DNA from: a virus
Lineage: Duplodnaviria; Heunggongvirae; Uroviricota; Caudoviricetes
IMG/VR virus record: IMGVR_UViG_2563366844_000003
Strand: one strand, 5' to 3'
Length of the DNA: 19,234 nt
A program made the translations under genes and the position numbers. Numbering within the stretch: position 1 is the first letter of the stretch; each line of letters opens with the position of its first letter. The notes below the pieces were generated by a model. That model saw only the letters and a program-made list of their open reading frames with translations, did not search any database and was not told the origin of the DNA. Positions 2,518 through 19,106 of the stretch are shown here, one piece after another.

Positions 2518-2948
2518 TGGAAAAGAAAAACCGCCCATTACAGGCGGCTAATTCAGATATTCGCGTATCTGATGTTACGCCCCTTACAAAATCCCTTCAA
2601 GAACCAAAGCGCACACCGAAAAAGCATCGTGCCAGAGTCTATATGCTGCGTACTGGTATAGAGGGATGGACAGAAAATGACATTCTTCGCTACTGCCGTC
2701 TGTCTTCTGGTCGTAACTATGCAACAGAGTTAGAACGCCAGCTTGGAATCACTCTGGAGCGTATCGACGAAAAGAATCCTGATGGTATCGGAACACACCT
2801 TCGCTACCGTTTCTCCTGCCGTGGTGATGTTCTGAAAGTGATCACTCATATTAACCATCTTGCGAACATAAATGATCACAACGGACTTTCTCAGCAGGAA
2901 ATTGCCGACATTCTGAAACTCTACCCGGACGCGTTTAACGCCGCCTAA
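2517..2948 (+). CDS. Hypothetical protein, translationally coupled to alpA
   Basis: 143-aa ORF. Start overlaps the alpA stop. No motif recognised. Confidence 0.6.
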   Translation: MEKKNRPLQAANSDIRVSDVTPLTKSLQEPKRTPKKHRARVYMLRTGIEGWTENDILRYCRLSSGRNYATELERQLGITLERIDEKNPDGIGTHLRYRFSCRGDVLKVITHINHLANINDHNGLSQQEIADILKLYPDAFNAA

Positions 2949-2960
2949 CGGAGACTGAAA

Positions 2961-3794: not shown

Positions 3795-3969
3795 GCCGAC
3801 AGGAACACCCCAACCTCAAAAACGCTACAAAGATGCCCACGGAGCACTCGTTACTGTCGAAAGCGTGTCTCACAACCGAGTGACGTTTTATCGCGACGGG
3901 TATCAATCGCCATGCGTACAACCGCTGGCACGTTTCATGAAGGAGTTTGCGGAGGTTAACAAATGCTAA
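3787..3969 (+). CDS. Small conserved prophage protein (DUF4222-like, tentative)
   Basis: 60-aa ORF starting at ATG 3787, which overlaps the antirepressor stop (ATGTTTAA). MFKPTGTP...RVTFYRDGY...PCVQPLARFMKEF resembles a small family common in enterobacterial prophages. The ORF track extends it upstream to 3700, inside the preceding gene. Confidence 0.45.
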   Translation: MFKPTGTPQPQKRYKDAHGALVTVESVSHNRVTFYRDGYQSPCVQPLARFMKEFAEVNKC

Positions 3970-5030
3970 CCGCCCAGAAGAAGATATTTTCACTGGCTGG
4001 TATGTCGCCAAAATCCAGCAATATGACAGCAAAGTCTGGCATTAATACAGCAGACACAAGCAAAGTTTATCATTTTCTGGTGGTAGGAGCGGATGCCTTA
4101 ACTATGTCAGAAATTACGGTCGATGGTGTTAGCGTTGAGAAGGTCAGCGGCTGCGCCAGAGAATTTCTGGTCGTAGATGGCTTTCTCTGCTCGCGTAGTG
4201 ACTCCACAAAAACCTTCGTCCACACGCGCGACGTTAACGAAATGAGCGCGATGTATTGTGCATCTGGTGCTTCCAATTCTGAGTTTTCGGAGTCCATAAA
4301 AAAGAGCTTGCCGTTATGCGGCAACACGGTTTATGGTTATAAGGCACCTCATAAAACGGGTGCCGGGATTGGCGTCCTGGTAAATCGAATGGCGACATAT
4401 GACGCGCCGAGCGTCTTTTTTTATGTCGTAGGTCTGACTCACCCATTTTTTGGGCGTTGGTGTATAATCCAGCGCCTTTGTCAATCAATGGTGGCTCAGG
4501 CAGGGGCTTCTTCGGAAGCGCCGGTATCCATTCGAGCCGGTTACGCCAACCCTGTCTGGGCTACCACCAGCGAAATTGGCGTTTCCGGTGGTAGCGTTAC
4601 ATGCTATCGAATGGAGGCTGCCACATGCTGGCTACTACCCCTACCCAAAAACCGCAATTTATCTGGATTATCGCCGCAGTTCGCCGCGATTGCCCGACAA
4701 TTACCGCCAAAATTCATCATATTGCTGCCGAGTCTGAACGCGATGCTCGCCGTTCTCTGGTGCGCGATCACGTCTGCTTTTTTGCTGGTCGTATCCGCAT
4801 GGAGGTGGCACATGATTAAAACCTACGATGTGCATATGGATCCCCTCGAACGCACAAGCCAGATCATCACACTGACAGAAGTGATTAACGACATTCTGGT
4901 GAGCAACTCTCCCTCACGAGACGAAAGACTGAAGGCGTTACTCGCGATATTGGATCTCGCCGTTCGTGACGTTCATTTCCTGCTGGAAGGTGGCGAAATG
5001 CCAGGAAAAACGGGGGCAACCAATGAATAA
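3963..5030 (+). CDS. Uncertain long ORF (355 aa); possibly composite, with a regulatory region and nested small ORFs
   Basis: Strong GGAGG SD 7 nt before ATG 3963 and no in-frame stop to 5030. The 4400-4810 portion contains a terminator-like hairpin plus T-run, a TATAAT box, three open frames and a low-complexity Cys/Trp-rich translation. Confidence 0.3.
4401..4422 (+). terminator. Putative intrinsic terminator (GACGC-gccga-GCGTC followed by T7)
   Basis: 5-bp GC stem, 5-nt loop, seven consecutive T. Lies inside the 3963 ORF, so it is functional only if that ORF is not translated through. Confidence 0.3.
4430..4470 (+). promoter_or_regulatory. Putative promoter with consensus -10 TATAAT (4463-4468) for the operon leading to the primase
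   Basis: Perfect TATAAT hexamer preceded by TG-rich sequence. The -35 is only a weak match (CTGACT region). Sits immediately after the terminator-like hairpin. Confidence 0.3.
4625..4819 (+). CDS. Small ORF (64 aa), first candidate gene of the primase operon
   Basis: GGAGG SD (4613-4617) 7 nt before ATG 4625. The SD-to-ATG 17-mer ATGGAGGCTGCCACATG is nearly duplicated at 4797-4814. Overlaps another frame, so low confidence. Confidence 0.25.
   Translation: MLATTPTQKPQFIWIIAAVRRDCPTITAKIHHIAAESERDARRSLVRDHVCFFAGRIRMEVAHD
4812..5030 (+). CDS. Small ORF (72 aa), C-terminal part of the 3963 frame with its own strong start
   Basis: GGAGG (4801-4805) 6 nt before ATG 4812. Stop overlaps the next start (ATGAATAA). 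Translation is protein-like. Confidence 0.4.
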   Translation: MIKTYDVHMDPLERTSQIITLTEVINDILVSNSPSRDERLKALLAILDLAVRDVHFLLEGGEMPGKTGATNE

Positions 5031-5217
5031 CTCAATTAATGCCCATCGACTTACGTCCGCACTTCAATTAATCGAGCAAGCAGCGGCTGTCCTGGTTGCT
5101 GTCAGTCTTTCGGCTGAAGAAATGGACGCTGTTGATGTCGTGGATGCGATTAAAGCGTGCTCATCTTTGGTTAACGATGCCCGTGCAGAGCTGGTAATTC
5201 TTGGGGGTGAAAAATGA
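5023..5217 (+). CDS. Hypothetical small protein (64 aa)
   Basis: ATG 5023 overlaps the upstream stop; ends in ATGA overlap with the next ORF. Confidence 0.5.
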   Translation: MNNSINAHRLTSALQLIEQAAAVLVAVSLSAEEMDAVDVVDAIKACSSLVNDARAELVILGGEK

Positions 5218-5477
5218 ATATCAACTTAATTTATCGTCATCCGTGTGAGCTGGAAATTGAATCATTGCTGAGCCGTGAAGAGCCATATCCAGACACATTC
5301 ACTCTTGCAGATCGCACGACTGAACGGCTTACCAGAGCGCGCACAGGTCTGGTTCATGTGATGAATGAGATTCTTCCATCGGTGGGAGGGGAACAGGCGA
5401 CAGTAATCACTAGCTGGCTACAAAAAGTTACCTCTCTGATAGATATCAGTTTAATCGATGCGGAGAGTGCGAAATGA
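5214..5477 (+). CDS. Hypothetical small protein (87 aa)
   Basis: Start/stop overlaps with both neighbours (ATGA), consistent with translational coupling. Confidence 0.55.
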   Translation: MNINLIYRHPCELEIESLLSREEPYPDTFTLADRTTERLTRARTGLVHVMNEILPSVGGEQATVITSWLQKVTSLIDISLIDAESAK

Positions 5478-5695
5478 CTAACATCCAGCTCATTGAAGCG
5501 CAATGTCGCATCGAACAGGTTCAGACTGTTTTAGGGTTCTGGCTTGAAGGGGCCAGCCCCAGCAACAGAGACAAGTTAATGATTGGCGCGGTTATGTCAC
5601 TGCTCAATGGCGTACCAGAAGCTATTCAGGAAGCGGACGAATTGTTGGGCAAATATGAGTTACAGAATCATTCAGGCGAGGCGAAACATGAATAA
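5474..5695 (+). CDS. Hypothetical small protein (73 aa)
   Basis: Coupled to neighbours; stop overlaps the start of the next gene (ATGAATAA at 5688-5695). Confidence 0.55.
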   Translation: MTNIQLIEAQCRIEQVQTVLGFWLEGASPSNRDKLMIGAVMSLLNGVPEAIQEADELLGKYELQNHSGEAKHE

Positions 5696-6290
5696 TTTCT
5701 TAACGTTCCATGCAGAAGCAACGCCTGACGGCGTAAACATCATGTACCGCAGCAACGATGGCATGACAGAACGCGTTGAGGCCGTCTCATATATTGATGC
5801 CGTAAATCGTCTGGATGCCGGGGATTATGACGATAAACCAGATGAAGGTATGTCAATACATCTCGCTATTGCCGATGGCGGCAACCAGGGATATTTCGAT
5901 TACACATCACAGCATAACGTCATTATGTGGAGATGGCTGATCGCAACAGTATTCATGCTGGAAATGAGAGAGGAAAACGGCACTGTCAGCATCATTGATG
6001 ATACTGGCAATCCTTCCGAAGTGGCTGTTTATTCCAACGGCATCGTCGCCATGCCGCTGTATCCAGTAGCAGAGCGTCTCGCTATGGCAAACAACATTGA
6101 GGGCGCGATGATAGAACGTTTTGGCATCGAGTCTGGCACAGAACGCGCCATCATTTTCTACAGAGCCATGATGGATGTGGAACAAGGAGCACTGACTCCA
6201 TTTGGTCGTGAAACGCTTGCTGAACTTCACAACAGCTTTATAGCTGAACTGAATGAAAACGGCATGCCAGCGGAACCAGTGACGCACTGA
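5688..6290 (+). CDS. Hypothetical protein (200 aa)
   Basis: Most plausible start is ATG 5688, overlapping the upstream stop; the track's 5583 start lies inside the previous gene. Confidence 0.6.
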   Translation: MNNFLTFHAEATPDGVNIMYRSNDGMTERVEAVSYIDAVNRLDAGDYDDKPDEGMSIHLAIADGGNQGYFDYTSQHNVIMWRWLIATVFMLEMREENGTVSIIDDTGNPSEVAVYSNGIVAMPLYPVAERLAMANNIEGAMIERFGIESGTERAIIFYRAMMDVEQGALTPFGRETLAELHNSFIAELNENGMPAEPVTH

Positions 6291-6300
6291 GGATGGAGCC

Positions 6301-6642
6301 ATGATTACTAAAAATTTCCGACTGAATGCGCTGGCAAATAAGTATGCGTCGGCACTGTATAACCACATTACCTCCACCAGCGACGGGGACTATTTCATGG
6401 TTGATGCGGACGGCGAGGCCGTACGTGTGGAAATCGTCAATGGAGTAAAAGGCGTTCGCAGCCTGATCGATAGCTACACACTGGCAGCCATGAAAGTGTT
6501 CTACCCGCAGTGGGAAACCGTGGGGATCGAGCTTCTTGAGCGTTGCGTCAATAAGGACGGATTGACTGACGTCGGGCGTGAGATATGGCAAAGCATGGTT
6601 AATGACATGGGCGCAACTGTAGCGGGAGGTTCTCATGCGTGA
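6301..6642 (+). CDS. Hypothetical protein (113 aa)
   Basis: GAGG SD before ATG 6301; stop overlaps the next start. Confidence 0.6.
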   Translation: MITKNFRLNALANKYASALYNHITSTSDGDYFMVDADGEAVRVEIVNGVKGVRSLIDSYTLAAMKVFYPQWETVGIELLERCVNKDGLTDVGREIWQSMVNDMGATVAGGSHA

Positions 6643-7006
6643 AAATGCAGAAATGGCGCTTAGCTCCGCAATCGGAGAGCAGGTGGCAAAGATTGCTGGT
6701 GCTGTGTGGATTCATAACCTTCATTCTACTGGTGAAGAGAAAATGGCAATTCAGACGCCAGAGGGACGCACCATTACTACATCTCTGAAGCCGTCAGATG
6801 TTTGTGATCTGATTTGCGCATTCATGTACCCAGCAATGAGGACTGTCCACGGCGATCAGTGGAAACTTGCGACAACCGCTGAATTTGATATGTGGCTAAA
6901 CAATGATGGCATGCTGACTGATTACGGAATAACCAAGTGGCAGATGCTGGTTAGCCATATCGCAAACGCTATAGACCACGTGGGGTACGGTGATGCGAAA
7001 CATTGA
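6635..7006 (+). CDS. Hypothetical protein (123 aa)
   Basis: GGAGG SD before ATG 6635; 3' end overlaps the primase start. Confidence 0.6.
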   Translation: MRENAEMALSSAIGEQVAKIAGAVWIHNLHSTGEEKMAIQTPEGRTITTSLKPSDVCDLICAFMYPAMRTVHGDQWKLATTAEFDMWLNNDGMLTDYGITKWQMLVSHIANAIDHVGYGDAKH

Positions 7007-9749
7007 TCTTATCCGTCAGGTTATCAGTGCGTCTGAAAACAACTGGCCTCATGTGCTGGGCTGCCTGAACATAAATGTCCCTGACTCTCCGCGCCGTCAT
7101 GCTCCCTGCCCTGCATGTGGGGGCAAAGATCGATTCCGGTTCGATGACAACGGGCGCGGTAGCTTCATCTGTAATCAGTGCGGCGCTGGTGATGGGCTGG
7201 ATTTAATTAAACGCGTAAATAACTGCGACACAACAGAGGCGGCGCTTCTTGCCGCTGATGTTCTGGGTATTGATTACCGGACAACGGAAACACCAGAAGC
7301 CACCAGCCAGAAACGGGAACAACTGGAAACCAAGCGCCAGCGACGCGAACAGGAGCGCCTGAAAAGGGCAGAGAAGGACGAACAACAAAGACGGGATACG
7401 TTTTCCCGTCAGTTTGATGACATGCGCAGAAAGGCTGTAAACGGCAAATCTGATTATCTGGTTGCGAAAGGGGTAGGTGATTTTACATTCCCCGTGTTGC
7501 CCGATGGATCTCTGTTGCTGGCGCTGGTGGATAAATCCGGCGCAGTCACAGCAGCACAGACTATTACCTCACATGGTGAAAAAAGACTCCTGACAGGTTC
7601 AGCAAAGCGGGGGGCATATCACGCCATAAACGCACCAGAAACAACACAGAGCATCTTAATCGCAGAAGGGCTGGCAACGGCATTATCTGCCCATTTAATT
7701 CGCCCAGAGGCGCTTACAGTGGCGGCGATTGATGCCGGGAACCTGTTATATGTCGCCCAGGTACTGCGGGATAAATTTCCTTCAGCACAAATCATCATTG
7801 CTGCGGATAACGACCACAGCGAAGGAAGACAAAACACGGGGAGAAGAGCAGCAGAAAAAGCAGCTTTATCTGTTTCTGGATGGGTGGCATTACCCCCGAC
7901 AGATCACAAAGCAGACTGGAATGATTACCACCAAAAACACGGCATTAAATGCGCCACAGAAGCGTTCAATAAGTCAATGTACCAACCACAGGGTAATGGC
8001 GTGAAACAGGAGCCACAGACCATTGAGGGAAGCGATTTTAAGGTTATGGATACCGACCCACTGAAACCAAGAATAGAAAGCCGCGAGGATGGTATTTATT
8101 GGGTATCTCCGAGAGCTGACAGCCAGAGTGGAGAAATCATCAATAACGAAAGCTGGTTATGTTCTCCGTTAAGCGTTATCGGTACTGGCAGAGACGATAA
8201 AGACCAGTATCTCATTCTTCGCTGGCTGTCGTTTGGTTCTGAAACGCCGACAACCGCTGCCATTCCACTGGCTGATATTGGTGAACGTGAAGGATGGCGC
8301 ACACTTAAAGCTGGTGGGGTAACTGTCACGACCAAAAGCAGCCTCAGAGCAATACTGGCAGACTGGCTACAACGCAGTGGCTCTCGTGAATTGTGGCGTG
8401 TTGCTCATGCCACTGGCTGGCAATGCGGAGCGTACATCATGCCTGATGGGGAAATCATCGGAACACCTGAAAATCCTGTGCTGTTCAGCGGGAGAAGCTC
8501 AGCCGCAGCCGGATATACCGTCTCAGGGAGCGCGAAAAGCTGGCGTGATAACGTGGCGCGTCTGGCCTTTGGTAACTATTCAATGATGACCGGGATCGGC
8601 GCAGCACTGGCAGCGCCATTGATTGGGCTGGTGGGCGCTGACGGGTTCGGCATTCATTTCTATGAGCAGTCGAGCGCAGGTAAGACCACCACGGCAAACG
8701 TGGCGAGCAGCTTATACGGCAACCCTGATTTACTGCGGCTGACGTGGTACGGAACCGCGCTGGGGCTGGCAAATGAAGCTGCCGCCCACAATGACGGACT
8801 AATGCCGCTTGATGAAGTTGGTCAGGGCGCTGATCCTGTCAGTGTTTCACAGTCTGCCTATGCGTTATTTAACGGTGTAGGGAAACTGCAAGGCGCTAAA
8901 GATGGTGGAAACCGGGATCTAAAACGCTGGCGTACAGTGGCAATCAGCACCGGAGAAATGGATTTAGAAACATTTATCGCTACTTCCGGGCGAAAAACCA
9001 AAGCCGGGCAACTGGTGCGACTGCTGAATATTCCGTTGAGTAAAGCAGTACGCTTTCACGATTACCAGAACGGAAAACAGCACGCAGACGCACTGAAAGA
9101 CGCTTACCAGCATCACCACGGCGCAGCCGGGCGTGAGTGGATTAAATGGCTGGCAGACCACCAGCAACAGGCAATTAAAACTGTTCGTGACCGCGAAAGC
9201 AGATGGAGAAGTCTGATCCCATCCGATTATGGTGAGCAGGTTCACCGTGTAGCCGCGCGATTTGCCATTCTGGAGGCCGCATTGCTGTTAGGCGAGGTTG
9301 TAACAGGCTGGGATGCTCAGACATGCCGTGATGCGATACAGCACAGCTATAACGCATGGTTGCGCGAGTTCGGCACAGGTAACAAAGAACATCAGCAGAT
9401 TATTGAACAAACGGAGGCATTTCTTAATGCCTATGGGCTTAGCCGTTTTGCACCATTTCCATACAGCCCGGCAGATTTGCCCATCAAAGATTTAGCCGGA
9501 TACCGTCAGCGTGGAGAACATGACGAAAGCCCAATGATTTTCTACACATTCCCGGCCACATTTGAAAAGGAGATCGCATGTGGTTTCAACGCAAAACAGT
9601 TTGCTGAAGTGTTGAAAAAAGCCGGGATGCTAACCCCACCAAACAGCGGTCGTGGATACCAAAGAAAATCACCACGTATTCAGGGACGACAAATAAACGT
9701 TTATGTACTCAATTACCAGCCAGGAGATTACAACTCATCTGAAGAATGA
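6993..9749 (+). CDS. Replicative primase/helicase, P4-alpha-like (zinc-binding N-terminus, TOPRIM, P-loop NTPase)
   Basis: Zn-ribbon CPACGG...FICNQCG near the N-terminus. TOPRIM-like ILIAEGLATA and IIIAADNDHSEG (acidic E and DxD). P-loop-like SSAGKTTT. Start is probably ATG 6993; the track begins at the in-frame GTG 6990. Confidence 0.9.
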   Translation: MRNIDLIRQVISASENNWPHVLGCLNINVPDSPRRHAPCPACGGKDRFRFDDNGRGSFICNQCGAGDGLDLIKRVNNCDTTEAALLAADVLGIDYRTTETPEATSQKREQLETKRQRREQERLKRAEKDEQQRRDTFSRQFDDMRRKAVNGKSDYLVAKGVGDFTFPVLPDGSLLLALVDKSGAVTAAQTITSHGEKRLLTGSAKRGAYHAINAPETTQSILIAEGLATALSAHLIRPEALTVAAIDAGNLLYVAQVLRDKFPSAQIIIAADNDHSEGRQNTGRRAAEKAALSVSGWVALPPTDHKADWNDYHQKHGIKCATEAFNKSMYQPQGNGVKQEPQTIEGSDFKVMDTDPLKPRIESREDGIYWVSPRADSQSGEIINNESWLCSPLSVIGTGRDDKDQYLILRWLSFGSETPTTAAIPLADIGEREGWRTLKAGGVTVTTKSSLRAILADWLQRSGSRELWRVAHATGWQCGAYIMPDGEIIGTPENPVLFSGRSSAAAGYTVSGSAKSWRDNVARLAFGNYSMMTGIGAALAAPLIGLVGADGFGIHFYEQSSAGKTTTANVASSLYGNPDLLRLTWYGTALGLANEAAAHNDGLMPLDEVGQGADPVSVSQSAYALFNGVGKLQGAKDGGNRDLKRWRTVAISTGEMDLETFIATSGRKTKAGQLVRLLNIPLSKAVRFHDYQNGKQHADALKDAYQHHHGAAGREWIKWLADHQQQAIKTVRDRESRWRSLIPSDYGEQVHRVAARFAILEAALLLGEVVTGWDAQTCRDAIQHSYNAWLREFGTGNKEHQQIIEQTEAFLNAYGLSRFAPFPYSPADLPIKDLAGYRQRGEHDESPMIFYTFPATFEKEIACGFNAKQFAEVLKKAGMLTPPNSGRGYQRKSPRIQGRQINVYVLNYQPGDYNSSEE

Positions 9750-9772
9750 GCTTCTTCATGTGCGTAGAAAAG

Positions 9773-9887
9773 GTGTTGGTTCAGTTGGTTCAGTTGGTTC
9801 AATTTATAAATGGTATTGTTTTATAAGGATTTTATTCTTTTTATTGAACCAACACTGAACCAACAACACGGTATTTTGAACCAACAC
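9773..9887. repeat. Iteron block 1: three tandem GTTGGTTCA (9775-9801), an AT-rich spacer, then three inverted copies TGAACCAAC (9845-9853, 9856-9864, 9877-9885); putative replication origin
   Basis: Exact 9-mers counted directly. Classic iteron plus AT-rich architecture, 26 bp downstream of the primase stop. Confidence 0.7.
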
Positions 9888-9935
9888 AATGTGACTGAAT
9901 TGATGCGCACAACACCTGGCTGGCATCAGAGAGTG

Positions 9936-10011
9936 TTTTACGAGACTTTCGTAAAATCCTGTGTACAAGGGCGTGACGTTTTTGAAAGTGAGCACTACGA
10001 AATTTTCGTAG
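9936..10011. promoter_or_regulatory. Two related palindromes sharing a TACGA/TCGTA half-site: TTTTACGA-n5-TCGTAAAA (9936-9956) and CTACGAAA-n1-TTTCGTAG (9995-10011)
   Basis: Perfect 8-bp inverted arms in both. Located between the iterons and the terminator; candidate operator sites or RNA hairpins. Confidence 0.3.
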
Positions 10012-10205
10012 TTCAGAAAACAGCCCTTGAGAAGTTGTTATGCCTGTTCAGCAAACCATCCGCATAGCTGATCGCGAATCAAATTACCAATGGAGCCAGA
10101 AGCAAGGGCAGAACTGAAAAGCGCCTGCCGTGAAGAGTAATGCGACACCATAAATATAGTTTTTAGAGTCCATAAAAAACCTGTCAAAACCTGACACACA
10201 GAACG

Positions 10206-10239
10206 ATGCCACCAGCTACTGAGCGGTGGCATTTTTTTT
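10206..10239 (+). terminator. Rho-independent terminator closing the primase/origin transcription unit
   Basis: ATGCCACC...GGTGGCAT stem (8 bp, extendable with inner pairs) followed by eight consecutive T. Confidence 0.65.
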
Positions 10240-10249
10240 GTGCTATATG

Positions 10250-10320
10250 TTTCATATTTTGCAATTACGATGATGAATGTTGCGATTTGTGAAACTATAA
10301 TAACTGTTGTTTTATACAGT
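10250..10320 (+). promoter_or_regulatory. Putative promoter region for the cargo operon (TATAAT at 10296-10301)
   Basis: AT-rich tract with a consensus -10 hexamer and TTGCAA/TTGCGA -35-like elements at non-ideal spacing, between the terminator and the SD of the small ORF. Confidence 0.3.
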
Positions 10321-10334
10321 TCTAAGGGGGCGTT

Positions 10335-10496
10335 ATGGCTATTTCAGTAAAGCCGGTATTGATAAGTGAGAAGCAAATGGAAGCGATAAAGAAAATTCAG
10401 GAAGAGCAGCGTAAAAAATCAGGAATTGGAGTAGCGCCAACTCTGCATGAAATTGCACGAGGGTTAATAGATAAGGCGCTGGCAGGCTGTATGTGA
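10335..10496 (+). CDS. Small ORF (53 aa) absent from the ORF track; possible ribbon-helix-helix-like regulator
   Basis: Strong SD AAGGGGG 5-6 nt before ATG 10335. Translation MAISVKPVLISEKQMEAIKKIQEEQRKKSGIGVAPTLHEIARGLIDKALAGCM has a beta-strand then two-helix pattern compatible with an RHH fold (by eye only). Confidence 0.4.
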   Translation: MAISVKPVLISEKQMEAIKKIQEEQRKKSGIGVAPTLHEIARGLIDKALAGCM

Positions 10497-10512
10497 AAAT
10501 GGATGGCATCGC

Positions 10513-10974
10513 ATGGAACTAAAATTTATTGATAACCCTGTGCGATTACAGGCCTTTCTTAACGAGCCTGGCAATACCGAAAATATTGTTGAGCCGGGGC
10601 ACACGTACTACATCAAGCCTGATGCGGTATATCTCGGTATCTACGAAGGATTGGTGCTGGCTGGCGTTCATGAAGTGCGTAACTTCTGGCATAACATTGT
10701 TGAATGCCATGCGGTGTACGACCCCGGATTCCGTGGTGAATATGCACTGCAAGGGCATCGATTATTCTGCAAATGGCTTCTCAAAAACTCACCATTCCTT
10801 AACAGCATTACCATGGTTCCTGACACCACCAAATACGGACGGGCAATTATCCGTTTGCTTGGCGCTACCCGTGTTGGTCACCTTGATGATGCTTATATCA
10901 GATGTGGTAAACCCGTCGGCGTAACGCTTTATCAGTTAACTCGGCAACAATATAAGGAATTCAGCGAATGTTAA
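10513..10974 (+). CDS. Putative virion-associated protein, first gene of the ejection-protein-like operon (position analogous to P22 gp14)
   Basis: 153-aa intact ORF whose stop overlaps the next start. Assignment rests on operon position and size, not a recognised motif. Confidence 0.65.
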   Translation: MELKFIDNPVRLQAFLNEPGNTENIVEPGHTYYIKPDAVYLGIYEGLVLAGVHEVRNFWHNIVECHAVYDPGFRGEYALQGHRLFCKWLLKNSPFLNSITMVPDTTKYGRAIIRLLGATRVGHLDDAYIRCGKPVGVTLYQLTRQQYKEFSEC

Positions 10975-11645
10975 TTACCCATATAGCTCATAAATATCTC
11001 AATCGTGCCGTATACGAAAAAGGCGGTGATGGTGGTGCCTCTAAAGCTCAGGCGAAGGCCCAGCAGCAGGCAATTGATTTGCAGCGCGAGCAGTGGAATA
11101 CGGTGATGAATAATCTCAAGCCGTATGCAGAAGTCGGATTGCCTGCTTTACAACAACTACAAGGACTGATGACTCTGGAAGGGCAGAATAAAGCCGCGAA
11201 TGATTTCTTTGGTTCTGGTTTATATAAAACACAGGCAGATCAGGCCCGTTATCAGAACCTTGTCTCAGCAGAAGCTACCGGGGGGCTTGGCTCAACAGCT
11301 ACCAGTAACCAGTTATCTTCCATTGCGCCCATGCTTTATAACAATTGGCTCAGTGGGCAAATGCAAAATTATGGAAACCTGCTAAATGTCGGGATGAATG
11401 CGGCATCAGGGCAGGCAACAGCAGGGCAAAACTACGCCAATAATACCGGACAACTCTTGCAGGGGCTTGGCGCTATTCGTGCAGGTCAGGCGCAGCAGCC
11501 ATCCAGTCTTGCGCGTGGTATTGGTGGGGCGGCATCAGGCGCTTTAGCGGGTGCGCAACTTGGTTCCGTTGTTCCGGGTATAGGTAATGTCGCCGGGGCT
11601 ATTGGTGGTGGGCTTATTGGTCTTGTTGGGGGGCTTGGATTCTAA
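10968..11645 (+). CDS. Putative ejection/DNA-transfer protein (P22 gp7-like architecture; Gly-rich hydrophobic C-terminus)
   Basis: 225 aa. Gln/Ala-rich N-terminal half and a glycine-zipper-like tail GIGGAASGALAGAQLGSVVPGIGNVAGAIGGGLIGLVGGLGF. Stop overlaps the next start (TAATG). Confidence 0.7.
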   Translation: MLITHIAHKYLNRAVYEKGGDGGASKAQAKAQQQAIDLQREQWNTVMNNLKPYAEVGLPALQQLQGLMTLEGQNKAANDFFGSGLYKTQADQARYQNLVSAEATGGLGSTATSNQLSSIAPMLYNNWLSGQMQNYGNLLNVGMNAASGQATAGQNYANNTGQLLQGLGAIRAGQAQQPSSLARGIGGAASGALAGAQLGSVVPGIGNVAGAIGGGLIGLVGGLGF

Positions 11646-12964
11646 TGGCGACATGGCAACTTGGCGGGCTGCCTAGCATGGCACCGCAAAATGATAATGC
11701 TCCTCGTTCTTCCGTTCCTCAGCCTGTGCAGTATCAGCAGCAGCCAAACGTAGGTTTAATGGCGCTACAGGGGCTAAGAGGCGTTGCTGAGATTAATCAG
11801 CAGGCGCAAATTTCCCAGCAGCTAAAAGAATATCAGGCACGGTTGGGTAGTGCGGTAGCTAATAATGATCGTGTTGGAGTGCAGAAGTTAATGGCCCAGT
11901 ATCCCCAGTTTATGGCTGATTCTCAAAAACAGATGGGATTCATTGATGCTGAGCAAAATCGACAGACCGCTGACGCTGCCATGAATCTGCGTCTTGCGTC
12001 ACAAACTGGAGATCCACTGACCATGCAGAAGGCCATTCAGCAGGCAAATCCAGTATTACAGCGATTTGGTCTTCCTGCTGAAGAGGTTTATCAGTCTTGG
12101 CAGAATGACCCACAGGAATTCAACAGAATCACTGACCTCATCCACCTCCATGCTGATCCAAATAGTTACTTTAGTGTTCAAGAGAAGCAGCAAGGGCAGA
12201 GCATTGCACAGCAGAACGCAGATACATCTGCATATAATGCTCAGGTTAATGCGGAACAGGGTAATCGGCGTCTCGATATGGAGCAGTTCAAAGTCCTATC
12301 CGATAACCAACTACGCACGAGAGAAATGGTTCTGAAAGCACGACTTGGACGTGCTCAAAATGACATCGAGAGAGACAAGCTCAATGCTGAACTGAGCAAA
12401 GTACAGCAGGCGAAAGTGGAGAAGATGAACGATAAAATTAATACTGTTGCAGGTAACATCGACTCCTTGAACTCTGCGCTTGAAGTGGGTCATGAACTGG
12501 CGGGAATTGTAGGGAAACATCCTTCGGCCGTTACCCGCTCGCAGAACTATAACCCCCTGACGCTGGGGTTTGGATTCCTTCCTGATGTAGCAGAAGACAC
12601 ACGAAGCCTACGCGCCAAAGCTGATGAATACAACCTAAAGGTTATTCTGCCTAGCCTCAAAGGGACTTTTGGCTCTAACCCAACCGAAGGGGAAAGGGCT
12701 GCCCTTATGCAATCTCAAAATGGCATTAAGTCAGCAACCAGCAATGAGGCATTTTTGCGAGAGTTGAATAAAGCGCAGGACGTAATTATTCGAATGCAGA
12801 AACGACAGATTGCCGGGCTCGGTATTCCTGTAACCAAATCAAAGGACGAAGAAACTGATACCAAAATGCTGTTGCAGGATCCTTCACTGATTAAGGATTA
12901 TGTGACCGCACATGGCTATCTGCCGGAAAGTTACTATCAGGCAAAACTTAAGGGATGGCAATGA
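11645..12964 (+). CDS. Putative ejection protein (P22 gp20-like; Gln-rich coiled-coil)
   Basis: 439 aa, Gln-rich and predicted alpha-helical. Coupled start/stop with both neighbours. Confidence 0.7.
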   Translation: MATWQLGGLPSMAPQNDNAPRSSVPQPVQYQQQPNVGLMALQGLRGVAEINQQAQISQQLKEYQARLGSAVANNDRVGVQKLMAQYPQFMADSQKQMGFIDAEQNRQTADAAMNLRLASQTGDPLTMQKAIQQANPVLQRFGLPAEEVYQSWQNDPQEFNRITDLIHLHADPNSYFSVQEKQQGQSIAQQNADTSAYNAQVNAEQGNRRLDMEQFKVLSDNQLRTREMVLKARLGRAQNDIERDKLNAELSKVQQAKVEKMNDKINTVAGNIDSLNSALEVGHELAGIVGKHPSAVTRSQNYNPLTLGFGFLPDVAEDTRSLRAKADEYNLKVILPSLKGTFGSNPTEGERAALMQSQNGIKSATSNEAFLRELNKAQDVIIRMQKRQIAGLGIPVTKSKDEETDTKMLLQDPSLIKDYVTAHGYLPESYYQAKLKGWQ

Positions 12965-15681
12965 TGGCACAACTGACAGAAAAACAGAAAGCCTATTCCC
13001 GTCATCTCGATGAAAAATATGGTTTCCCATCAGGGACGATGGAAACATTAGTTGGCAATGAATCTAGTGGTAACGGAAGTGCCGAGTCACCGAAAGGAGC
13101 TAGAGGATTTGCTCAACTGATGCCCTCAGTAATGAGTGATGCTGGTTATCGTGGAACTGATCCGCGCTCACTGCCATTTGAAAAGCAAATGGATATCGCA
13201 GCAAACCATCTCAATAAAGGAATGAAGCGATTTGGTGATATTGGTATGGCATTGGCTGGGTATAATTCTGGCTATGCTCGTATTAATGCCGTCAGAAACG
13301 GTAAATCTACACTGCCAGATGAAACGGCTAATTACGTAAGTAAATTTGCAGATGCCGGAATAATCCCTGATGACAGTGAAATCTTGCAGTTTGCACAAAC
13401 CAGTCAACATCGCAATCTTCAGCAGCCTGACTACTCAGAGCTTGATAAAGAAATCTCTCAGGTGGGAGATATTTCTGCATGGGAAGCAAAACGTCAGCAA
13501 TTTAAGAACATAGAAGCAGGACTACCAACAGCCAGTTCATGGGAGCAGAAAAGAGCTCAGTTTCTCGCCGATGAAAATGCCGGGGAACCGCAGCAGCAAG
13601 TAGCCAAGTCTAACCTTAATCCTGAGATGGAATATCTTTCGCCAGGACTGAAAGCTGCGCCAGAGCAGATGGCCAGAGGGATTGCTAATATACCGTTTGA
13701 TGTAATGGACGCAGGCGTGGGGGTAGTCAATGCGGCGCAATCAGCCGGAGCATGGGCAGCTCAGAAGCTTGGTGTGGGTGATGGCACATACACGCCCATA
13801 TCACCTGTCTTTCGCCCAGTAGACCAACCTACAGATCCATACGCGCAGGCTGGTGAGCAGCTAGCACCTTACCTTATTACAGGATTAGGTGCAGGAAAGG
13901 CAGCTACCGCAGCTTCTTCCGTTGCCAACGCTCCACGTGCTGAACGTGCGGCCACAAAGGTGGCTAGTATGTTGGCAGAAAACCTGCCAGGTACATTGGT
14001 GAACGCCCAAAAGAACGGGCAGATCAGCCCAGAAGACCTAGCAAAAGAGACAGGTATTGGCCTAGCAGGATCGCTAGGAGCACGCGCTTTAATAAAGAGC
14101 GGACAGACAGCCAGTGACGTAATGCGAGATGTATTGCGGAGTAATACAAATCAATCAGGCCATGTGTTAGGGGCAGCAAATACTCTGGAAACCGCCAATG
14201 ATGTATCGAAAGCAGCGCGTTCTGCCGTAGGCCGAGAGCATATCGCATCGCAGGCATCAAACGTCAGAGATGATGTCGCTAAGGCGGCGAAAATCACTGG
14301 TATTAATATCAACACCCTGACGCCCGGAATGCGCTCAGGTAGTCGTGGAATTGCCCAAGCAGAAGGTGTTCTGGCATCAACTCCTGGGAATGTTCAGGAT
14401 GCTCACCTTACGGCCTTCAATGAAATATCCTCAAAGTTGAATAAGCAGTTGTCTGATTTCGGTGCTGAGTCTGGAAGCGCATCAGAAAAAAGCGCAGCAA
14501 TTAAAGAGCGCATCATCGCGAGCCTCAGTGATATGAAAACAGCAGAGAATATGGCATGGGCAGAACTGCGAAGCACGATGCCACGCGAAAGGATGAAAAT
14601 GAGTAATGGGATGGCTGTCGTCCAAGCAGAAAAAGCAGCCAATGTTCCACTCAGCCCGGAGATGAAACAGTTTCAGGCTGCCAACAACCAAGGTGGCGGC
14701 ATAACCTTCGACGGGATGAAGGCATGGCGTGCTAAGTTTGCTGATGCTGAACAAGCAAACACCCGGGCAGGTAAGGCCAATGCCGCCCGGATTGCCGGAG
14801 AAATGCGCAGAGCTATCACTGATGACATGCGCATCATGGCTGAAAAAGGAAACTTCCTCACAGAATGGCAGAAAGCTAACGATCTCTCTAAAAGTTACAT
14901 TATCGCCAAACAAAATGCCGAATCTGTTTTTGGTCGAGATCTCGCATCAGACGCTATGGTAAGAAAAGGTGCCGATACGCTTAAGGCATCCGCAAACACT
15001 GGAACGGGAGCTTTTCACCGCCTTATCTCCGCGCTGCCGGAAGCAGAACGCCAACCAGCAATAGCATCTATTCTTCAGCATGCTGTGGCGCAGGGAGAGA
15101 AGGGAGGAATCGGTGAAGAGTCTGGTATCCAGTATTTTGCCAAGCTCATGACCCAGCAGAATGTAAACGCCATCAGTCGTCATGCGCCAGATCTCGGTAG
15201 AATGATGAAAGAGTTCGGTGTACTCGCTAAAGCCAGCACCAGACCGCAGCGATACGTAGAGCGCACGGGAAGAACAACTGAGGCTCTCAAAACGCTCGAT
15301 TCAGGCCTTCCAAAGATCGTCGGTGTGATCATGAACGGAGTTCAACAGTCAGGTGCGATCGCTGGAGGCTTTGGCGGTGGTGTAATTGGTTCGATTAGTG
15401 GTTTGGTTGCTGGTGGCGCACTGAGAAATACTGTGGCTAAGATTGGGGCGACAAGAAGTGGTCGATATGCGATAGAGAAAGCCGTTCAGGAAGCTACAAA
15501 AGCAGTGCGCGCAGGGGCATCACCAGCAGCGATCGCCGCAGCAGAGAAACGATTTTCGACCAATAAAATTGCCATGAAAGCAATTCGTGATGCCGTTGGG
15601 GCTGAAGAATTCGTGAAACTGACAAGGGCCGGGATTGTAGCTACCCTCAGTGGCATGAAAGATGTTAGCGAATGGGAATAG
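12955..15681 (+). CDS. Large internal virion/ejection-type protein with N-terminal lytic transglycosylase (SLT) domain
   Basis: 908 aa. SLT motifs GNESSGNGSAESPKGARGFAQLMP (putative catalytic Glu at nt 13060-13062) and ALAGYNSGYARINAV. True start is probably ATG 12961 or 12964, which have better SD spacing from AAGGGA. Confidence 0.85.
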   Translation: MAMMAQLTEKQKAYSRHLDEKYGFPSGTMETLVGNESSGNGSAESPKGARGFAQLMPSVMSDAGYRGTDPRSLPFEKQMDIAANHLNKGMKRFGDIGMALAGYNSGYARINAVRNGKSTLPDETANYVSKFADAGIIPDDSEILQFAQTSQHRNLQQPDYSELDKEISQVGDISAWEAKRQQFKNIEAGLPTASSWEQKRAQFLADENAGEPQQQVAKSNLNPEMEYLSPGLKAAPEQMARGIANIPFDVMDAGVGVVNAAQSAGAWAAQKLGVGDGTYTPISPVFRPVDQPTDPYAQAGEQLAPYLITGLGAGKAATAASSVANAPRAERAATKVASMLAENLPGTLVNAQKNGQISPEDLAKETGIGLAGSLGARALIKSGQTASDVMRDVLRSNTNQSGHVLGAANTLETANDVSKAARSAVGREHIASQASNVRDDVAKAAKITGININTLTPGMRSGSRGIAQAEGVLASTPGNVQDAHLTAFNEISSKLNKQLSDFGAESGSASEKSAAIKERIIASLSDMKTAENMAWAELRSTMPRERMKMSNGMAVVQAEKAANVPLSPEMKQFQAANNQGGGITFDGMKAWRAKFADAEQANTRAGKANAARIAGEMRRAITDDMRIMAEKGNFLTEWQKANDLSKSYIIAKQNAESVFGRDLASDAMVRKGADTLKASANTGTGAFHRLISALPEAERQPAIASILQHAVAQGEKGGIGEESGIQYFAKLMTQQNVNAISRHAPDLGRMMKEFGVLAKASTRPQRYVERTGRTTEALKTLDSGLPKIVGVIMNGVQQSGAIAGGFGGGVIGSISGLVAGGALRNTVAKIGATRSGRYAIEKAVQEATKAVRAGASPAAIAAAEKRFSTNKIAMKAIRDAVGAEEFVKLTRAGIVATLSGMKDVSEWE

Positions 15682-15831
15682 ACGCTCTAACTAACAAAAC
15701 CATAATAGCCAAGGACGGCATACTGATATTGAGCCAACTATAAAAATTCCATATCACATTACGAGCCTGTGGCTTACATTCGCTTACAGTGATGATAATT
15801 TATAACCACGCAATTCTTAGGTGAGATTATC

Positions 15832-16530
15832 ATGATTAAAAATCTTCTTTTAATATTATCCCTGTCATTATTGGCTGGATGCGTACAAAAACCGTTAGTA
15901 ACGGTCAATGCTTTATCCTCCGGGCAATCTGTCGGTAAGAAGTTCTTGATCATCCCCGCAAGCCAAGAACTTTGGAACACCAAACAGATTGAATACACTC
16001 AAATAGCTACGGTAGTAGCCGCCAGTTTATCAAGCCAAGGATATACACAAGTTAAAGATGAAAAATTGGCTGACCAGGTAATTCTCTTGAACTTTTTGAG
16101 AAGCGGGGCCATTTCAAATACTCGTAATGTAACCATCCCAATATACGGGCAAACTGGTGTGAGCTCAGCAACAACGTACGGAAACTCGAACACCACGTTC
16201 AATAGTTATGGTGGTGGCTACGGTACGGCTAATACCACTGGAACGGCAACAACAGTTTATACGCCTACTTATGGAATTACTGGCGCGTATAACACAACTG
16301 TGACGGACACGTTCTACGGCGCAGGGGTGATACTCCAGTCGTTTGATGCCAAGGCTTATCTCAATAATAGGCAGATTAATATGTTATGGAAAGTTGGTAG
16401 CTCAGTCGTCTCGCAACAGTCTGATGGAATTGCTGATTACAAAGGGTTGGCGAGAATAGCCGCTAGCTATGCCGGGAAAAATACAGAAGGTGATATAACT
16501 TTTAATGTTGACCCTAAAGCACCAAATTAA
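15832..16530 (+). CDS. Lipoprotein with Thr/Gly/Tyr-rich low-complexity core
   Basis: Signal peptide plus lipobox LLAGC. Central T/G/Y/N-rich tract (about aa 110-160). AGGTGAG SD. AT-richer than the upstream operon. Confidence 0.8.
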   Translation: MIKNLLLILSLSLLAGCVQKPLVTVNALSSGQSVGKKFLIIPASQELWNTKQIEYTQIATVVAASLSSQGYTQVKDEKLADQVILLNFLRSGAISNTRNVTIPIYGQTGVSSATTYGNSNTTFNSYGGGYGTANTTGTATTVYTPTYGITGAYNTTVTDTFYGAGVILQSFDAKAYLNNRQINMLWKVGSSVVSQQSDGIADYKGLARIAASYAGKNTEGDITFNVDPKAPN

Positions 16531-16537
16531 CTAATAA

Positions 16538-16553
16538 GCCCGGTACGCCGGGC
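16538..16553 (+). terminator. GC-rich hairpin GCCCGG-tacg-CCGGGC after the lipoprotein gene (weak terminator candidate)
   Basis: 6-bp GC stem with a 4-nt loop, 8 bp after the stop, but a poor U-tract (ATTCAT). Confidence 0.3.
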
Positions 16554-16743
16554 ATTCATGCCCCTATTATTCATGAATCGCTTTTTCTGGAAGGTATGCG
16601 ACAAACGTTAAGTGACATTGCCTACACATTCGGGGCGGGATTTCAAATCCGCTCCCAGTTGATGGGGCCGTTACAGTACGCGCATATCCGCTTTATGTGA
16701 AACAGGAAGATTTTTCTGATATCACTGCCACAGCAAAACACCA

Positions 16744-16956
16744 ATGTCGAGACAAGTACGCGCGCGAGGGTTATCAGTTGCAAAAAGTTTTGCAACTGCG
16801 TCCGACCAGTACGCACACAATGGAGGGGAGTACCATAAAACTGTTCTCTACATAAGACAGAGTGATGGTGATGTGTTGATTATCGGCTTATATGCGCACA
16901 GGACGCGCTATGACGATGTTTTATGCGGGTACACCAATCACATATATCTGGTGTGA
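16744..16956 (+). pseudogene. Possible remnant of a RelE/ParE-superfamily toxin gene (C-terminal motif only)
   Basis: C-terminal HKTVLYIRQSDGDVLIIGLYAHRTRYDD loosely matches the RelE/ParE C-terminal pattern, but the N-terminal 35 aa are not toxin-like and overlap repeat sequence. Weak. Confidence 0.2.
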
Positions 16957-17055
16957 TAAATCGCGTTACATGACCTCTCATGTTGTGCTGGTGGTTATCA
17001 CGACGTTCTGAATCTGGCCTTTGCCTGGTATTTTGCGACAAGTACGCGCGCGTAG
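16752..17055. repeat. Direct repeats GACAAGTACGCGCGCG (16752-16767 and 17040-17055) flanking a 24-bp perfect palindrome CAGTTGCAAAA-AG-TTTTGCAACTG (16775-16798)
   Basis: Exact 16-mer occurs twice 288 bp apart. A third TACGCGCGCG occurs at 19012-19021. Confidence 0.6.
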
Positions 17056-17600
17056 CATCGAAATAATCGGATGGCGTATGCTGCTGGTAATATGAAGACC
17101 GATAGCATTAACCGAAAGGAGAAAGACTTCTCGATAACGGCAAGATCGCGGCAAGGGGGCTGAATTGCGAGGCGAGATTAAGCAACTGTCTTGAACGTAA
17201 AAATCATGGAGCAACATGATGGTACGATTCATTCCATTCTTCGTTCTTTCTGAGCATTGCGTTCAGGCTTAGTCAAAATTAGTGTTGCGAGCGGACCTAT
17301 TAGTAATTGTTAGTGCGATGCGCCTGTTATGGATTGTTATGGTTGTGGCAGGCCTGATTAATATCCAGTATGACCACCAGCTATGAGAAGCCACCTCAGT
17401 GGTTCGCAGTTGCAGGTTTGCACTCAGGTTCGCAGGGTTTTGGCTACTTTCACGTGCGAACCTGCAGAATTGCAAAGGACAACTAAGTCCTCTGGCCAAC
17501 TCCCGGTTTATGAGCGACACAGTCCGCCTGGCGCATCGTTTTCGTCGAGTGCGCCCATCAGCTTGTCCATGGACTATCCACCACTCGATATTAAAGCTAA

Positions 17601-17786
17601 TCATTGGTTGCCAGCCCGCGAATCAAGTTTATTCTGGATCCAAGCTTCAACCTCCTCAAGCGACCATCTAGCTGATCTACCAATTTTAACTGGCTGTGGA
17701 AACGTGCCCGTCTTAACCCATGAGTAGATTGCCGTTTTCTTGAAGCCCGTTCTGAGCATGACTTCGCTTAATTTGATAAGGCGCAT
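17601..17786 (-). CDS. alpA: Second AlpA-family transcriptional regulator, opposite strand
   Basis: 61 aa. MRLIKLSEVMLRTGFKKTAIYSWVKTGTFPQPVKIGRSARWSLEEVEAWI is a textbook AlpA sequence. GGAG SD on the minus strand upstream. Confidence 0.85.
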   Translation of the reverse strand: MRLIKLSEVMLRTGFKKTAIYSWVKTGTFPQPVKIGRSARWSLEEVEAWIQNKLDSRAGNQ

Positions 17787-17835
17787 AGAGGCTCCTCTGC
17801 TTTAGATTAAGCATAGTGACAATCTGGCTTTGGGC

Positions 17836-17870
17836 GGTATCCAAAAGCGAGGTATCCATGTTGGTATCCA
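17836..17870. repeat. Three direct GGTATCCA repeats (17836-17843, 17851-17858, 17863-17870) in the divergent region upstream of minus-strand alpA
   Basis: Exact 8-mers spaced 15 and 12 bp apart, start to start. Confidence 0.5.
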
Positions 17871-17984
17871 CCAAAACGCTGTTTACCAAAAAAGTTACCA
17901 CCGGAACAGGACATTTTGAGCTGTAACTTAACACATAGCATATGGAGTTCACGTATAGACTTCACGCACAACGGCTCCGGCCAG

Positions 17985-18013
17985 TGAAGAATCACCCTGG
18001 CTGGCAATATAAT
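17985..18013 (+). promoter_or_regulatory. Putative promoter (-10 TATAAT at 18008-18013) for the small + strand ORF
   Basis: Consensus -10 hexamer with a weak -35 (TGAAGA) at 17-bp spacing. Confidence 0.3.
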
Positions 18014-18038
18014 GCCGATCACCATCAGAGGGGAATCC

Positions 18039-18215
18039 ATGACACCACGAGAAATCGAGCTGCTGACCATTGCCAAGCTGGAGCATGACGGCCACCAGCT
18101 CAGCCCGGCAGAACTGCGGGAATTAAGGCGCCAGCTGGCAGAGGGCCCTGTAATAGCCAGGCGGTACCGCGAAATGATGACCAGCGCCGCTCCGTGCGCG
18201 GTGAGCAGCACCTAA
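18039..18215 (+). CDS. Small hypothetical protein (58 aa)
   Basis: GAGGGG SD 5 nt before ATG 18039. The track's start at 18012 overlaps the -10 box and lacks an SD. Confidence 0.45.
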   Translation: MTPREIELLTIAKLEHDGHQLSPAELRELRRQLAEGPVIARRYREMMTSAAPCAVSST

Positions 18216-18276
18216 CCAGCACTAGACAAGCCCTGTGCTGGTGGATGTCCCTCATAATTAGCGGTTTTTAAACGGC

Positions 18277-18401
18277 GTGTTGGTTCACGGCCTCTTTTTG
18301 TTGGTTCAAAAATGGGGGGTGTTGGTTCACTTTTTGCGAATAATCCTTTTAAAAACAATACTCTTTACAAATTGAACCAACTGAACCAACTGAACCAACA
18401 C
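18277..18401. repeat. Iteron block 2: three spaced GTTGGTTCA (18279-18287, 18300-18308, 18321-18329), an AT-rich spacer, then three tandem TGAACCAAC (18373-18399); inverted copy of block 1
   Basis: Same 9-mer as block 1, with the tandem and spaced arrays swapped. The reverse complement of the spacer aligns with the block-1 spacer (shared ATTTRTAAA...GTATTGTTTT...AGGATT...ATTC). Confidence 0.7.
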
Positions 18402-18435
18402 CTTTTTGCTTATCTATATAGTCTGAGAGGCAGAA

Positions 18436-18723
18436 ATGATGAGGGACAGGAAAGCTGAAGAGCTGGAGTCAAAAGGGCTATGCCGGAGAGCTGCCGCACG
18501 ATGGGCAGAAGTCATGACGCTGGCAGATGGCGATAAAGAACGTGAACATGCAGCAAACAGACGCTCTGAATGTATCCGTAGGGCGGCACGCCCACCAGCA
18601 ACTACAGACAGATTCGGAGATTTAAGACAGGCAGTTAAGCGAACTCATTCGGCTCTTGGTATGGATGAGGAAGCGAGAGGGTACTTCAGGCGTTATCGCG
18701 ATAAAGATTGCCAGAGACAGTAA
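18436..18723 (+). CDS. PerC-family transcriptional regulator (tentative)
   Basis: 95 aa. N-terminus KAEELESKGLCRRAAARWAEVM resembles the PerC motif (AEKLEAKGLWRRAA.RW.EV) as I recall it. GAGAGG SD. Confidence 0.6.
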   Translation: MMRDRKAEELESKGLCRRAAARWAEVMTLADGDKEREHAANRRSECIRRAARPPATTDRFGDLRQAVKRTHSALGMDEEARGYFRRYRDKDCQRQ

Positions 18724-19106
18724 TGCTCTCTCTGTTTTGGCAAATTACCCCTCACTTTGAAGGGATCGGAGCTATAAAAATGGTGTTATCCGGCTTCCTG
18801 CATTGCAGGTTTTCGAAAAAATCAATGGGTTAGGTCATCGTGCAAATTTGCACTCTGCCAGCCAACGCAATTTCTCGTTGGCGAAAATATCAGGTATTTA
18901 CTGAACGAACGGTCTACCAGTCTATTCAGTTACCAGTTGCACATGGCTGTTTCATGTGAGAACGGAGGTTTTTTCGGACATCACTATTGGGTACAGCAAT
19001 TTCACGAGCAATACGCGCGCGCAGGACAACAAGCCTGAACATGATTACACACCTCGATCGTGAGGGATGTAGACAATGGCTTCTGACCAAAGCACCCAAA
19101 AAAACC

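Follow-up and report, generated by a model that had tools for sequence, protein, structure and literature searches.

Fragments of helper-phage small terminase genes as a candidate packaging-site cassette in an EcCIMP1-type chromosomal island of Escherichia coli

The satellites P4 and SaPIbov5 carry the cos site of their helper, and Fillol-Salom reportedly described, in 2019, Escherichia coli phage-inducible chromosomal islands (PICIs) with Rpp, a protein that binds the small terminase subunit (TerS). The Vibrio satellite PLE has a 14-bp copy of the pac site of its helper, without which a backup route of its transduction does not work (Boyd and Seed, 2024, PMC11417361). The E. coli island EcCIMP1 belongs to a family with int, alpA, a primase gene, P22-like ejection genes, alpA_1 and perC, inserted at tRNA-Thr, and its excision and transduction were found only with the P22-like helper vB_EcoP_Kapi1 (Kapi1 below), whose replication it is reported to aid and not to block (Pick, Stadel and Raivio, 2025, PMC11773190). 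No capsid or terminase genes could be identified in EcCIMP1, and its authors state that they do not know how it is packaged; they describe neither pac-like sites nor the non-coding region considered here (PMC11773190), nor are the sites described in a second paper that mentions EcCIMP1. In this study, we analyzed a stretch of 19,234 nucleotides (IMG/VR record IMGVR_UViG_2563366844_000003; "the window" below) which, judging by gene content and near-identity to EcCIMP1, is an EcCIMP1-type PICI of E. coli, and in particular the kilobase at 16560-17600. The conserved content of this kilobase is shown by database comparison to consist of short fragments of helper-phage small terminase genes (terS) from two or three families. 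We think it somewhat probable that the region is a cassette of sites that mimic the pac of helpers with different types of terminase, and thus a candidate packaging site of an island without a terminase of its own.

The first of the two recurrent fragments, motif 1, is a pac-like 27-mer, GAAGATTTTTCTGATATCACTGCCACA, at 16706-16732 on the plus strand, beside the first copy of motif 2. It shares 16 of 22 positions with the P22 pac site as annotated, and the window at 16707-16723 agrees with 11 of the 12 positions of the pac core and with 16 of the 17 positions of the pseudo-pac pattern derived experimentally for P22 (Maier et al., 2024, PMC11226127). A weight matrix made from nine array repeats of a Leclercia relative alone gives motif 1 a score of 19.1 bits, the 99th percentile of shuffled maxima being 18.0. 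On the 41.7-kb P22 genome the same matrix gives the annotated pac site as its single top match (27.6 bits; next 11.7), a score reached in none of 300 shuffles, and some intact terS genes of gp3 type, 86-90% identical to P22 gp3, match the array consensus 27/27 where pac lies. These matches show motif 1 to be derived from the pac site of a P22 gp3-type terS. It is invariant in all 15 E. coli versions of the region, beside a hypervariable stretch. A motif 1-like copy (GGAGGTTTTTTCGGACATCACTATTGG; plus strand) lies at 18964-18990, downstream of perC, and scores 16.4 bits against a shuffle 95th percentile of 15.9; its spacing to the third copy of motif 2 is that of the array units in relatives. 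A P22-type pac site lies inside the terS that it serves. The copies described here lie in non-coding DNA of a window without a terS gene, and we therefore regard them as putative mimics and not as a phage pac site. A relaxed pseudo-pac pattern match at 9685-9701, on the minus strand at the 3′ end of the primase gene, was non-significant.

Motif 2 is about 30 nt long, with the repeat TACGCGCGCG as its 3′ half; the similarity reaches about 29-30 nt in all three copies, each on the plus strand. Copy 1 (16740-16769; 25.8 bits) contains the first instance of the 16-mer GACAAGTACGCGCGCG and reads in frame as ..AKHQCRDKYAREG.., while copy 2 (17026-17055; 28.6 bits) contains the second, reads FCDKYARVA and is the last conserved element before the cargo. 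Copy 3 (18995-19024; 20.7 bits) holds the third TACGCGCGCG and reads QQFHEQYARAGQQ. The weight matrix used for these scores was built from diverged relatives only, and its 99th percentile in shuffles is 18.7 bits. The initial annotation, made from the letters of the window, was right that the 16-mer occurs exactly twice, at starts that were off by 1 and 3 (true positions 16751-16766 and 17037-17052), and it correctly placed a third TACGCGCGCG at 19012, the other two starting at 16757 and 17043. By our own arithmetic about 0.04 exact 16-mer pairs are expected in 19 kb; with up to one mismatch, TACGCGCGCG has 5 matches where 1.27 are expected, a count reached in 5 of 200 shuffles. All three motif-2 copies of the window also occur in EcCIMP1 of E. 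coli MP1, and in EcCIMP1 and other variants a copy-2-like version occupies the place of copy 3, directly after perC.

Searching the helper genome with the motif-2 matrix gives one strong match in Kapi1, inside terS (24.2 bits; next best 12.9). The best Kapi1 match of the entire region is an exact one of copy 2 (14/14 nt at Kapi1 18879-18892), inside the Sf6-type terS, which there encodes ..AKHEDFRDKYAKA.. In IMG/VR the exact 16-mer is present in 84 stretches, which include, apart from island copies, about 20 intact TerS open reading frames (ORFs) where it encodes DKYAR of a conserved TerS motif. We take these comparisons to show that motif 2 is derived from an Sf6/Kapi1-type terS, at codons 55-64. 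As would be expected of packaging-site mimicry by a satellite, an island of a helper-dependent family, with no terminase detected, has a unique match to the terS of Kapi1, at a spot that may be its pac site. The earlier suggestion that the repeats mark remnants of a mobile or recombination element holds in that remnants, a recombination-prone junction and the 3′ stub of an IS110-family insertion sequence (IS) are present; the repeats themselves are fragments of phage small terminase genes and not IS or REP ends. Only short fragments are involved: a protein hidden Markov model from 120 Sf6-type TerS had no significant match on tiles of the window, and a whole decayed terS was rejected. The Sf6-type terS is itself a mosaic, with two alleles at 76% identity over nt 1-176 and 96-99% identity over nt 177-429, and an attempt to locate pac in it by synonymous-site conservation was abandoned as confounded by this mosaic. 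A frame resembling Sf6-type TerS, with stops, at 9583-9690 in the 3′ end of the primase gene is non-significant (E 0.03-0.2).

Both motifs lie in a conserved, unannotated stretch at 16632-17061 (plus strand; segment B), which is 94-97% identical across island variants with differing flanks and occurs in an estimated 500-540 E. coli records among those searched, judging from ranks in a spread listing. Its 15 distinct versions are invariant at 16650-16741, hypervariable at 16742-16870 and nearly invariant in the remainder. A search of GTDB (one genome per species) with the ejection protein as query returned two loci, one of which was decisive. It is a Leclercia adecarboxylata element (L193) with 79% nucleotide identity in the ejection genes, and at the homologous site (array at L193 14780-15420) it has about 10 copies of motif 1 interleaved with 4 copies of motif 2. 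The motif-1 consensus of this array is GAAG(A/G)TTT(A/T)T..G...TCACTA(C/T)GCGA, and Leclercia has two strict matches to the pseudo-pac pattern. Three relatives in IMG/VR each have 3 copies of motif 1, and 2 copies of motif 2 were read in two of the three; where the flank was checked, the array directly follows the terminator of the lipoprotein gene. The motifs are thus kept at the locus, as 3+2 or about 10+4 copies, in relatives whose neighboring genes are 69-79% identical, and they cross reading frames and stop codons there. For the rest of segment B, no similarity was found in Leclercia, and none was seen in the IMG/VR array regions read.

Two further terS fragments are present in the window. 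One, of P22 type, lies at 4111-4217 on the minus strand and matches P22 gene 3 nt 268-374 at 94 of 107 nt (88%; E 3e-34). It starts exactly at the first base of pac, and its first 27 nt agree 27/27 with the pac position of intact gp3-type terS alleles (L278, L284 and L285). The fragment is upstream of the Ash domain and antisense within the N-terminal extension of the annotated ash ORF, and this extension is therefore probably not real coding sequence. The other, at 17073-17152 on the plus strand, corresponds to the helix-turn-helix coding part of a Terminase_2-type (PF03592) terS with one frameshift. In a search of the whole phage collection it matches a Leptolyngbya phage terS at 65 of 81 nt (80%; E 7e-10), and four of the six other viral contigs that share its 20-mer have it in Terminase_2 TerS ORFs. 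Its matches in the phage collection are to two cyanobacterial (Leptolyngbya) phages only, which is odd for an E. coli island. Taken together, the comparisons show that the terS fragments come from the DNA-recognition or pac part of the gene, are repeated, and are kept at the locus in diverged relatives.

From this pattern we infer that helper terminase would bind at the motifs and that they would have a role in packaging. Upon induction of the helper, the island would excise and replicate, helper small terminase would bind the mimic sites and the large terminase would cut close by, with headful packaging proceeding rightwards over island concatemers as the motifs are on the plus strand; in P22, the direction of packaging follows the strand of the pac or pseudo-pac motif (Maier et al., 2024, PMC11226127). 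An island with sites for several terminase types would have more P22-like helpers at its disposal. It is possible, though on balance we are doubtful, that the cassette has arrays of mimics for at least two and perhaps three TerS families (gp3-, Sf6- and Terminase_2-type), so that P22-like helpers could package the island irrespective of their terS allele.

Several observations weigh against a packaging cassette. At a position where the P22 pac core is C and the pattern allows T or C only, the array consensus of motif 1 is G, and no IMG/VR terS allele has the exact version found at window 16706, all detected copies of which are in islands. A matrix scan of Kapi1, the proven helper, found no motif-1 site. 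The E. coli copies of the motifs in the window are imperfect and diverged; motif 2 and Kapi1 terS agree at 19-21 of 30 positions by manual count, protein-profile tests of the motif-2 copies were non-significant (E 3-32), and nhmmer with a terS DNA profile gave weak matches (E 0.09-0.2, with copy 2 at 0.09). The position assumed for the Sf6-type pac is the one reportedly given by Leavitt et al. in 2013. BLASTP found no homology between Sf6-type and gp3-type TerS, and the placing of motif 2 at the pac position by an alignment of the two was dropped for this reason. Motif 2 starts at the junction of the terS allele mosaic and the cargo boundaries follow its copies, hence the motifs may be scars of recombination. 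Finally, the transduction frequency of EcCIMP1 is reported as very low (PMC11773190).

Functionless recombination scars are the main rival, even if we consider them rather unlikely. Terminase cutting at pac would generate recombinogenic ends, and the conserved 5′ parts of terS would serve as crossover points between phages and between phage and island, so that pac-proximal pieces of terS would build up where island modules join. Such an origin would fit the start of the 4111-4217 fragment at pac, like the end of packaged phage DNA, the position of motif 2 at the mosaic junction, the variable cargo right behind the motif-2 copies, the exchange of ejection genes between island and helper, the known hybrids with lambdoid prophages (L007, P0023) and the divergence of the E. 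coli copies. Scars, however, are expected to be single and decaying, whereas the relatives hold arrays of 3-10 copies of the 27-nt pac portion only, some of them 27/27 identical to live terS alleles, and arrays of this make-up are left unexplained by scars. The motifs also stay at the locus in relatives without similarity to the rest of segment B, motif 1 is invariant beside a hypervariable stretch, and in each of the three TerS families it is the DNA-recognition part that has supplied the fragments. The same sequence evidence would be produced by decoys, that is, arrays that titrate the helper small terminase and so cut helper packaging, or that guard against P22-like phages that are not helpers, and the neighboring cargo is defense-like (Abi, ImmA/IrrE, Doc, Panacea). 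We regard decoys as improbable: the reported aid of EcCIMP1 to Kapi1 replication runs counter to them, and a decoy cut by terminase would be packaged anyway, so that the idea overlaps with mimicry. Operator or iteron sites for a DNA-binding protein of the island (AlpA, PerC, primase or Ash), unrelated to packaging, would likewise be repeated, in direct orientation and in non-coding DNA near regulators, and true iterons, TGTTGGTTCA, are found nearby. Those iterons belong to a different sequence family, though, and the motifs match terS of phages without these island proteins, with the P22 pac as the unique top match, which makes this explanation very improbable.

The least credible of the alternatives is that the region holds a toxin-antitoxin locus in decay or a genuine gene for a small protein, with the repeats as incidental coding sequence. 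The initial annotation had noted a toxin-like remnant because the 70-aa ORF at 16744-16956, which is indeed present, ends in what looked like a RelE/ParE C-terminus. This resemblance is superficial (a small basic ORF ending in ..HRTRY), and neither Pfam (E up to 1 and 10) nor PHROGs gave a match, ParE/RelE included, for the 70-aa, the 104-aa or the reconstructed 97-aa form. The frames 16697-16855 and 16744-16956 are parts of one frameshifted remnant ORF (16697-16956, plus strand). An intact ORF of 86-104 aa exists in a minority of variants, is annotated as a 104-aa hypothetical ORF in strain 214-4 (broken in the window by a 1-nt deletion) and has well conserved flanks. Against this, most variants are truncated or frameshifted, with differing indels restoring differing frames, and the motifs cross frames and stop codons in the relatives. 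All 42 homologues of the ORF, obtained in a large protein search, are unnamed E. coli and Salmonella fragments that vary in length and frame. No match was obtained by tblastn in 50,697 phage records, and no relatives in the one-genome-per-species GTDB. No conserved partner frame that could encode an antitoxin is present upstream. The window ORF thus differs from RelE/ParE type II toxins in profile match, antitoxin partner and conserved frame, and the toxin-antitoxin interpretation is abandoned, the 16-mer being located inside a known gene, terS. An origin of the ORF start from DUF4222 was rejected as well, since the record on which it was based (P0023) is a junction chimera and the profile spans only its N-terminal part.

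The initial view that the stretch is non-coding stands. The closest genome (99.9% identity over 16500-17650) has no coding sequence annotated between the lipoprotein-like gene and alpA, versions of the region differ by indels of 1, 2, 10 and 11 nt, and the ORF is frameshifted in most variants; 16560-17600 is non-coding. Promoter and terminator scans found nothing above chance within the region, and a search of Rfam 15 returned no family, its sole match being a chance snoRNA (E 0.46) outside it. Within 16742-16870, indels occur in an A-run, which is the center of a palindrome, and in a G-run, with invariant DNA on either side, and from strain to strain different indels restore different reading frames. 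The palindrome itself, at 16775-16798, had been described as a perfect 24-mer; it is present, as two fully complementary 11-nt arms around a 2-nt center that is not palindromic. The arms are conserved and the center varies, the predicted hairpin has −15.2 kcal/mol (z −3.0), and it was seen in E. coli versions only, with no counterpart in the homologous region read in Leclercia and the IMG/VR relatives.

The remainder of the kilobase is decayed filler, made up of the frameshifted ORF, an IS110 stub and the hairpin-bearing tail of the alpA_1 unit. The right edge of segment B, where the variable cargo starts, is at 17061, 17097, 17117 or 17166 depending on the variant, and an 11-bp direct-repeat indel, CGGCAAGATCG, is polymorphic at about 17139-17149. 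The stub, at 17183-17269 on the minus strand, has the last 20 codons of an IS110-family transposase (LNAMLRKNEEWNESYHHVAP*) and the right end, with 95.8% identity to an intact IS in O26:H11; a complete element would have the DEDD transposase and both ends, and only this 3′ stub is present. It joins native DNA at a microhomology of roughly 15 nt, and about 2,000 E. coli genomes have this element, whole or as a stub. Segment D was considered as the bridge-RNA end of IS110 and rejected, as there is no similarity to the intact IS outside the 3′ stub. From 17270 to 17600 follows a non-coding stretch downstream of alpA_1 that occurs only in 153 genomes, always at full length (with a 10-nt indel) and only with alpA_1, and is 72-80% conserved in Leclercia. 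It contains a hairpin at 17411-17466 and the 10-bp tandem repeat TGTTATGGAT (about 17326-17345), present in 2 or 3 copies by strain. The long hairpin (17401-17466; 12-13 bp stem, loop with GGTTCGCAGGG) is also found in Leclercia (L193 15620-15670), where the stem sequence differs and an Abi-like gene is inserted immediately 3′ of it.

A comparison of the window with five other loci (L005, L006, L008, L010 and L193) outlines two cargo slots. The slot after motif 2 copy 2 (window 17062-18277) has IS3 with ImmA/IrrE, Abi, small genes or alpA_1, and a second, after perC, has genes for Doc toxin, Panacea-domain or pRiA4b-ORF3 proteins; both look like accessory or defense hotspots. Next to the non-coding region lies alpA_1 (17601-17786, minus strand), of the Xis-like AlpA family (Pfam Phage_AlpA, E 1.9e-13), which is reported as a stand-in excisionase for Kapi1 (PMC11773190). 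Upstream of perC, at 18278-18402, three copies of the iteron TGTTGGTTCA occur with inverted GAACCAAC copies, and a related cluster in inverted orientation is found at 9768-9889, directly after the primase gene; the two clusters are likely a replication origin pair.

The assignment of the window to the EcCIMP1 type is based on int, alpA, primase, P22-like ejection genes, alpA_1 and perC, all present, and on 98.3% identity of 2507-18516 (~16 kb compared) to EcCIMP1 of MP1, from which both window ends diverge. Roughly one complete E. coli genome in ten carries an island of this type. From left to right, the genes are integrase, antA-like, ash, TOPRIM/DUF927 primase, P22-like ejection genes (DUF2824, gp7, gp20 and a gp16-like transglycosylase) and a lipoprotein-like gene, 3′ of which come the 16560-17600 region, alpA on the minus strand, the iterons and perC. 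The region is non-coding DNA at the boundary where the P22-like ejection-protein module meets the accessory/alpA_1/perC end, and neither TerS nor TerL (the large terminase) was detected in the window island. The ejection-protein genes of island and helper Kapi1 (L028) are 81-89% identical in parts (IMG/VR contigs L020, L025 and L087). One IMG/VR contig joins Kapi1-like head genes to an island-type gp16 and segment B, and is either a helper-satellite recombinant or an assembly chimera.

The candidate cis-acting packaging sites make the published gap in the packaging of EcCIMP1 directly testable. If the cassette serves several TerS families, motif 2 would reveal where the Sf6/Kapi1-type pac site lies, namely at terS codons 55-64, and a P22-like phage with a particular gp3 allele would help the island far more than Kapi1 does. 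The reading would also predict which helper terminase alleles mobilize these islands together with their defense or virulence cargo. Short terS-derived repeats in terminase-less elements may offer a computational route to the pac sites of other satellites.

Compared with described systems, the island resembles PLE in being a satellite with a short copy of a helper packaging sequence. PLE, however, parasitizes ICP1, which is a lytic phage, and has genes for a TerL inhibitor and for packaging specifiers, whereas the window island has arrayed putative sites from two or three terminase families and no recognizable packaging proteins. The likeness to the P22 pac site, on which Wu et al. are said to have worked in 2002, extends to the 22-bp site with its 12-bp core, AAGATTTATCTG, as well as to the pseudo-pac pattern. 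The P22 site lies inside terS, while the window copies are outside any terS and in a satellite, and the array consensus of motif 1 departs from it at core position 10. The pseudo-pac sites of Salmonella, in turn, are chance matches, in contrast to the conserved and repeated island copies. With P4, SaPIbov5 and the PICIs that encode Rpp, the island would share the principle that a terminase-less satellite carries the packaging site of its helper or redirects the helper TerS; those systems use cos, whereas the window island would be packaged by the headful (pac) route from multiple mimic sites, and no redirecting protein was identified in it. EcCIMP1 belongs to the same element family and differs from the window island at both ends. 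Mimicry of pac by a satellite (PLE and ICP1) and satellites with a helper cos site are thus already known. If correct, our reading would mean that pac-site mimicry, until now shown for Vibrio PLE, also exists in enterobacterial PICIs, there with arrayed sites for multiple helpers, and what would be new is a pac-like set of this kind, directed at several terminases.

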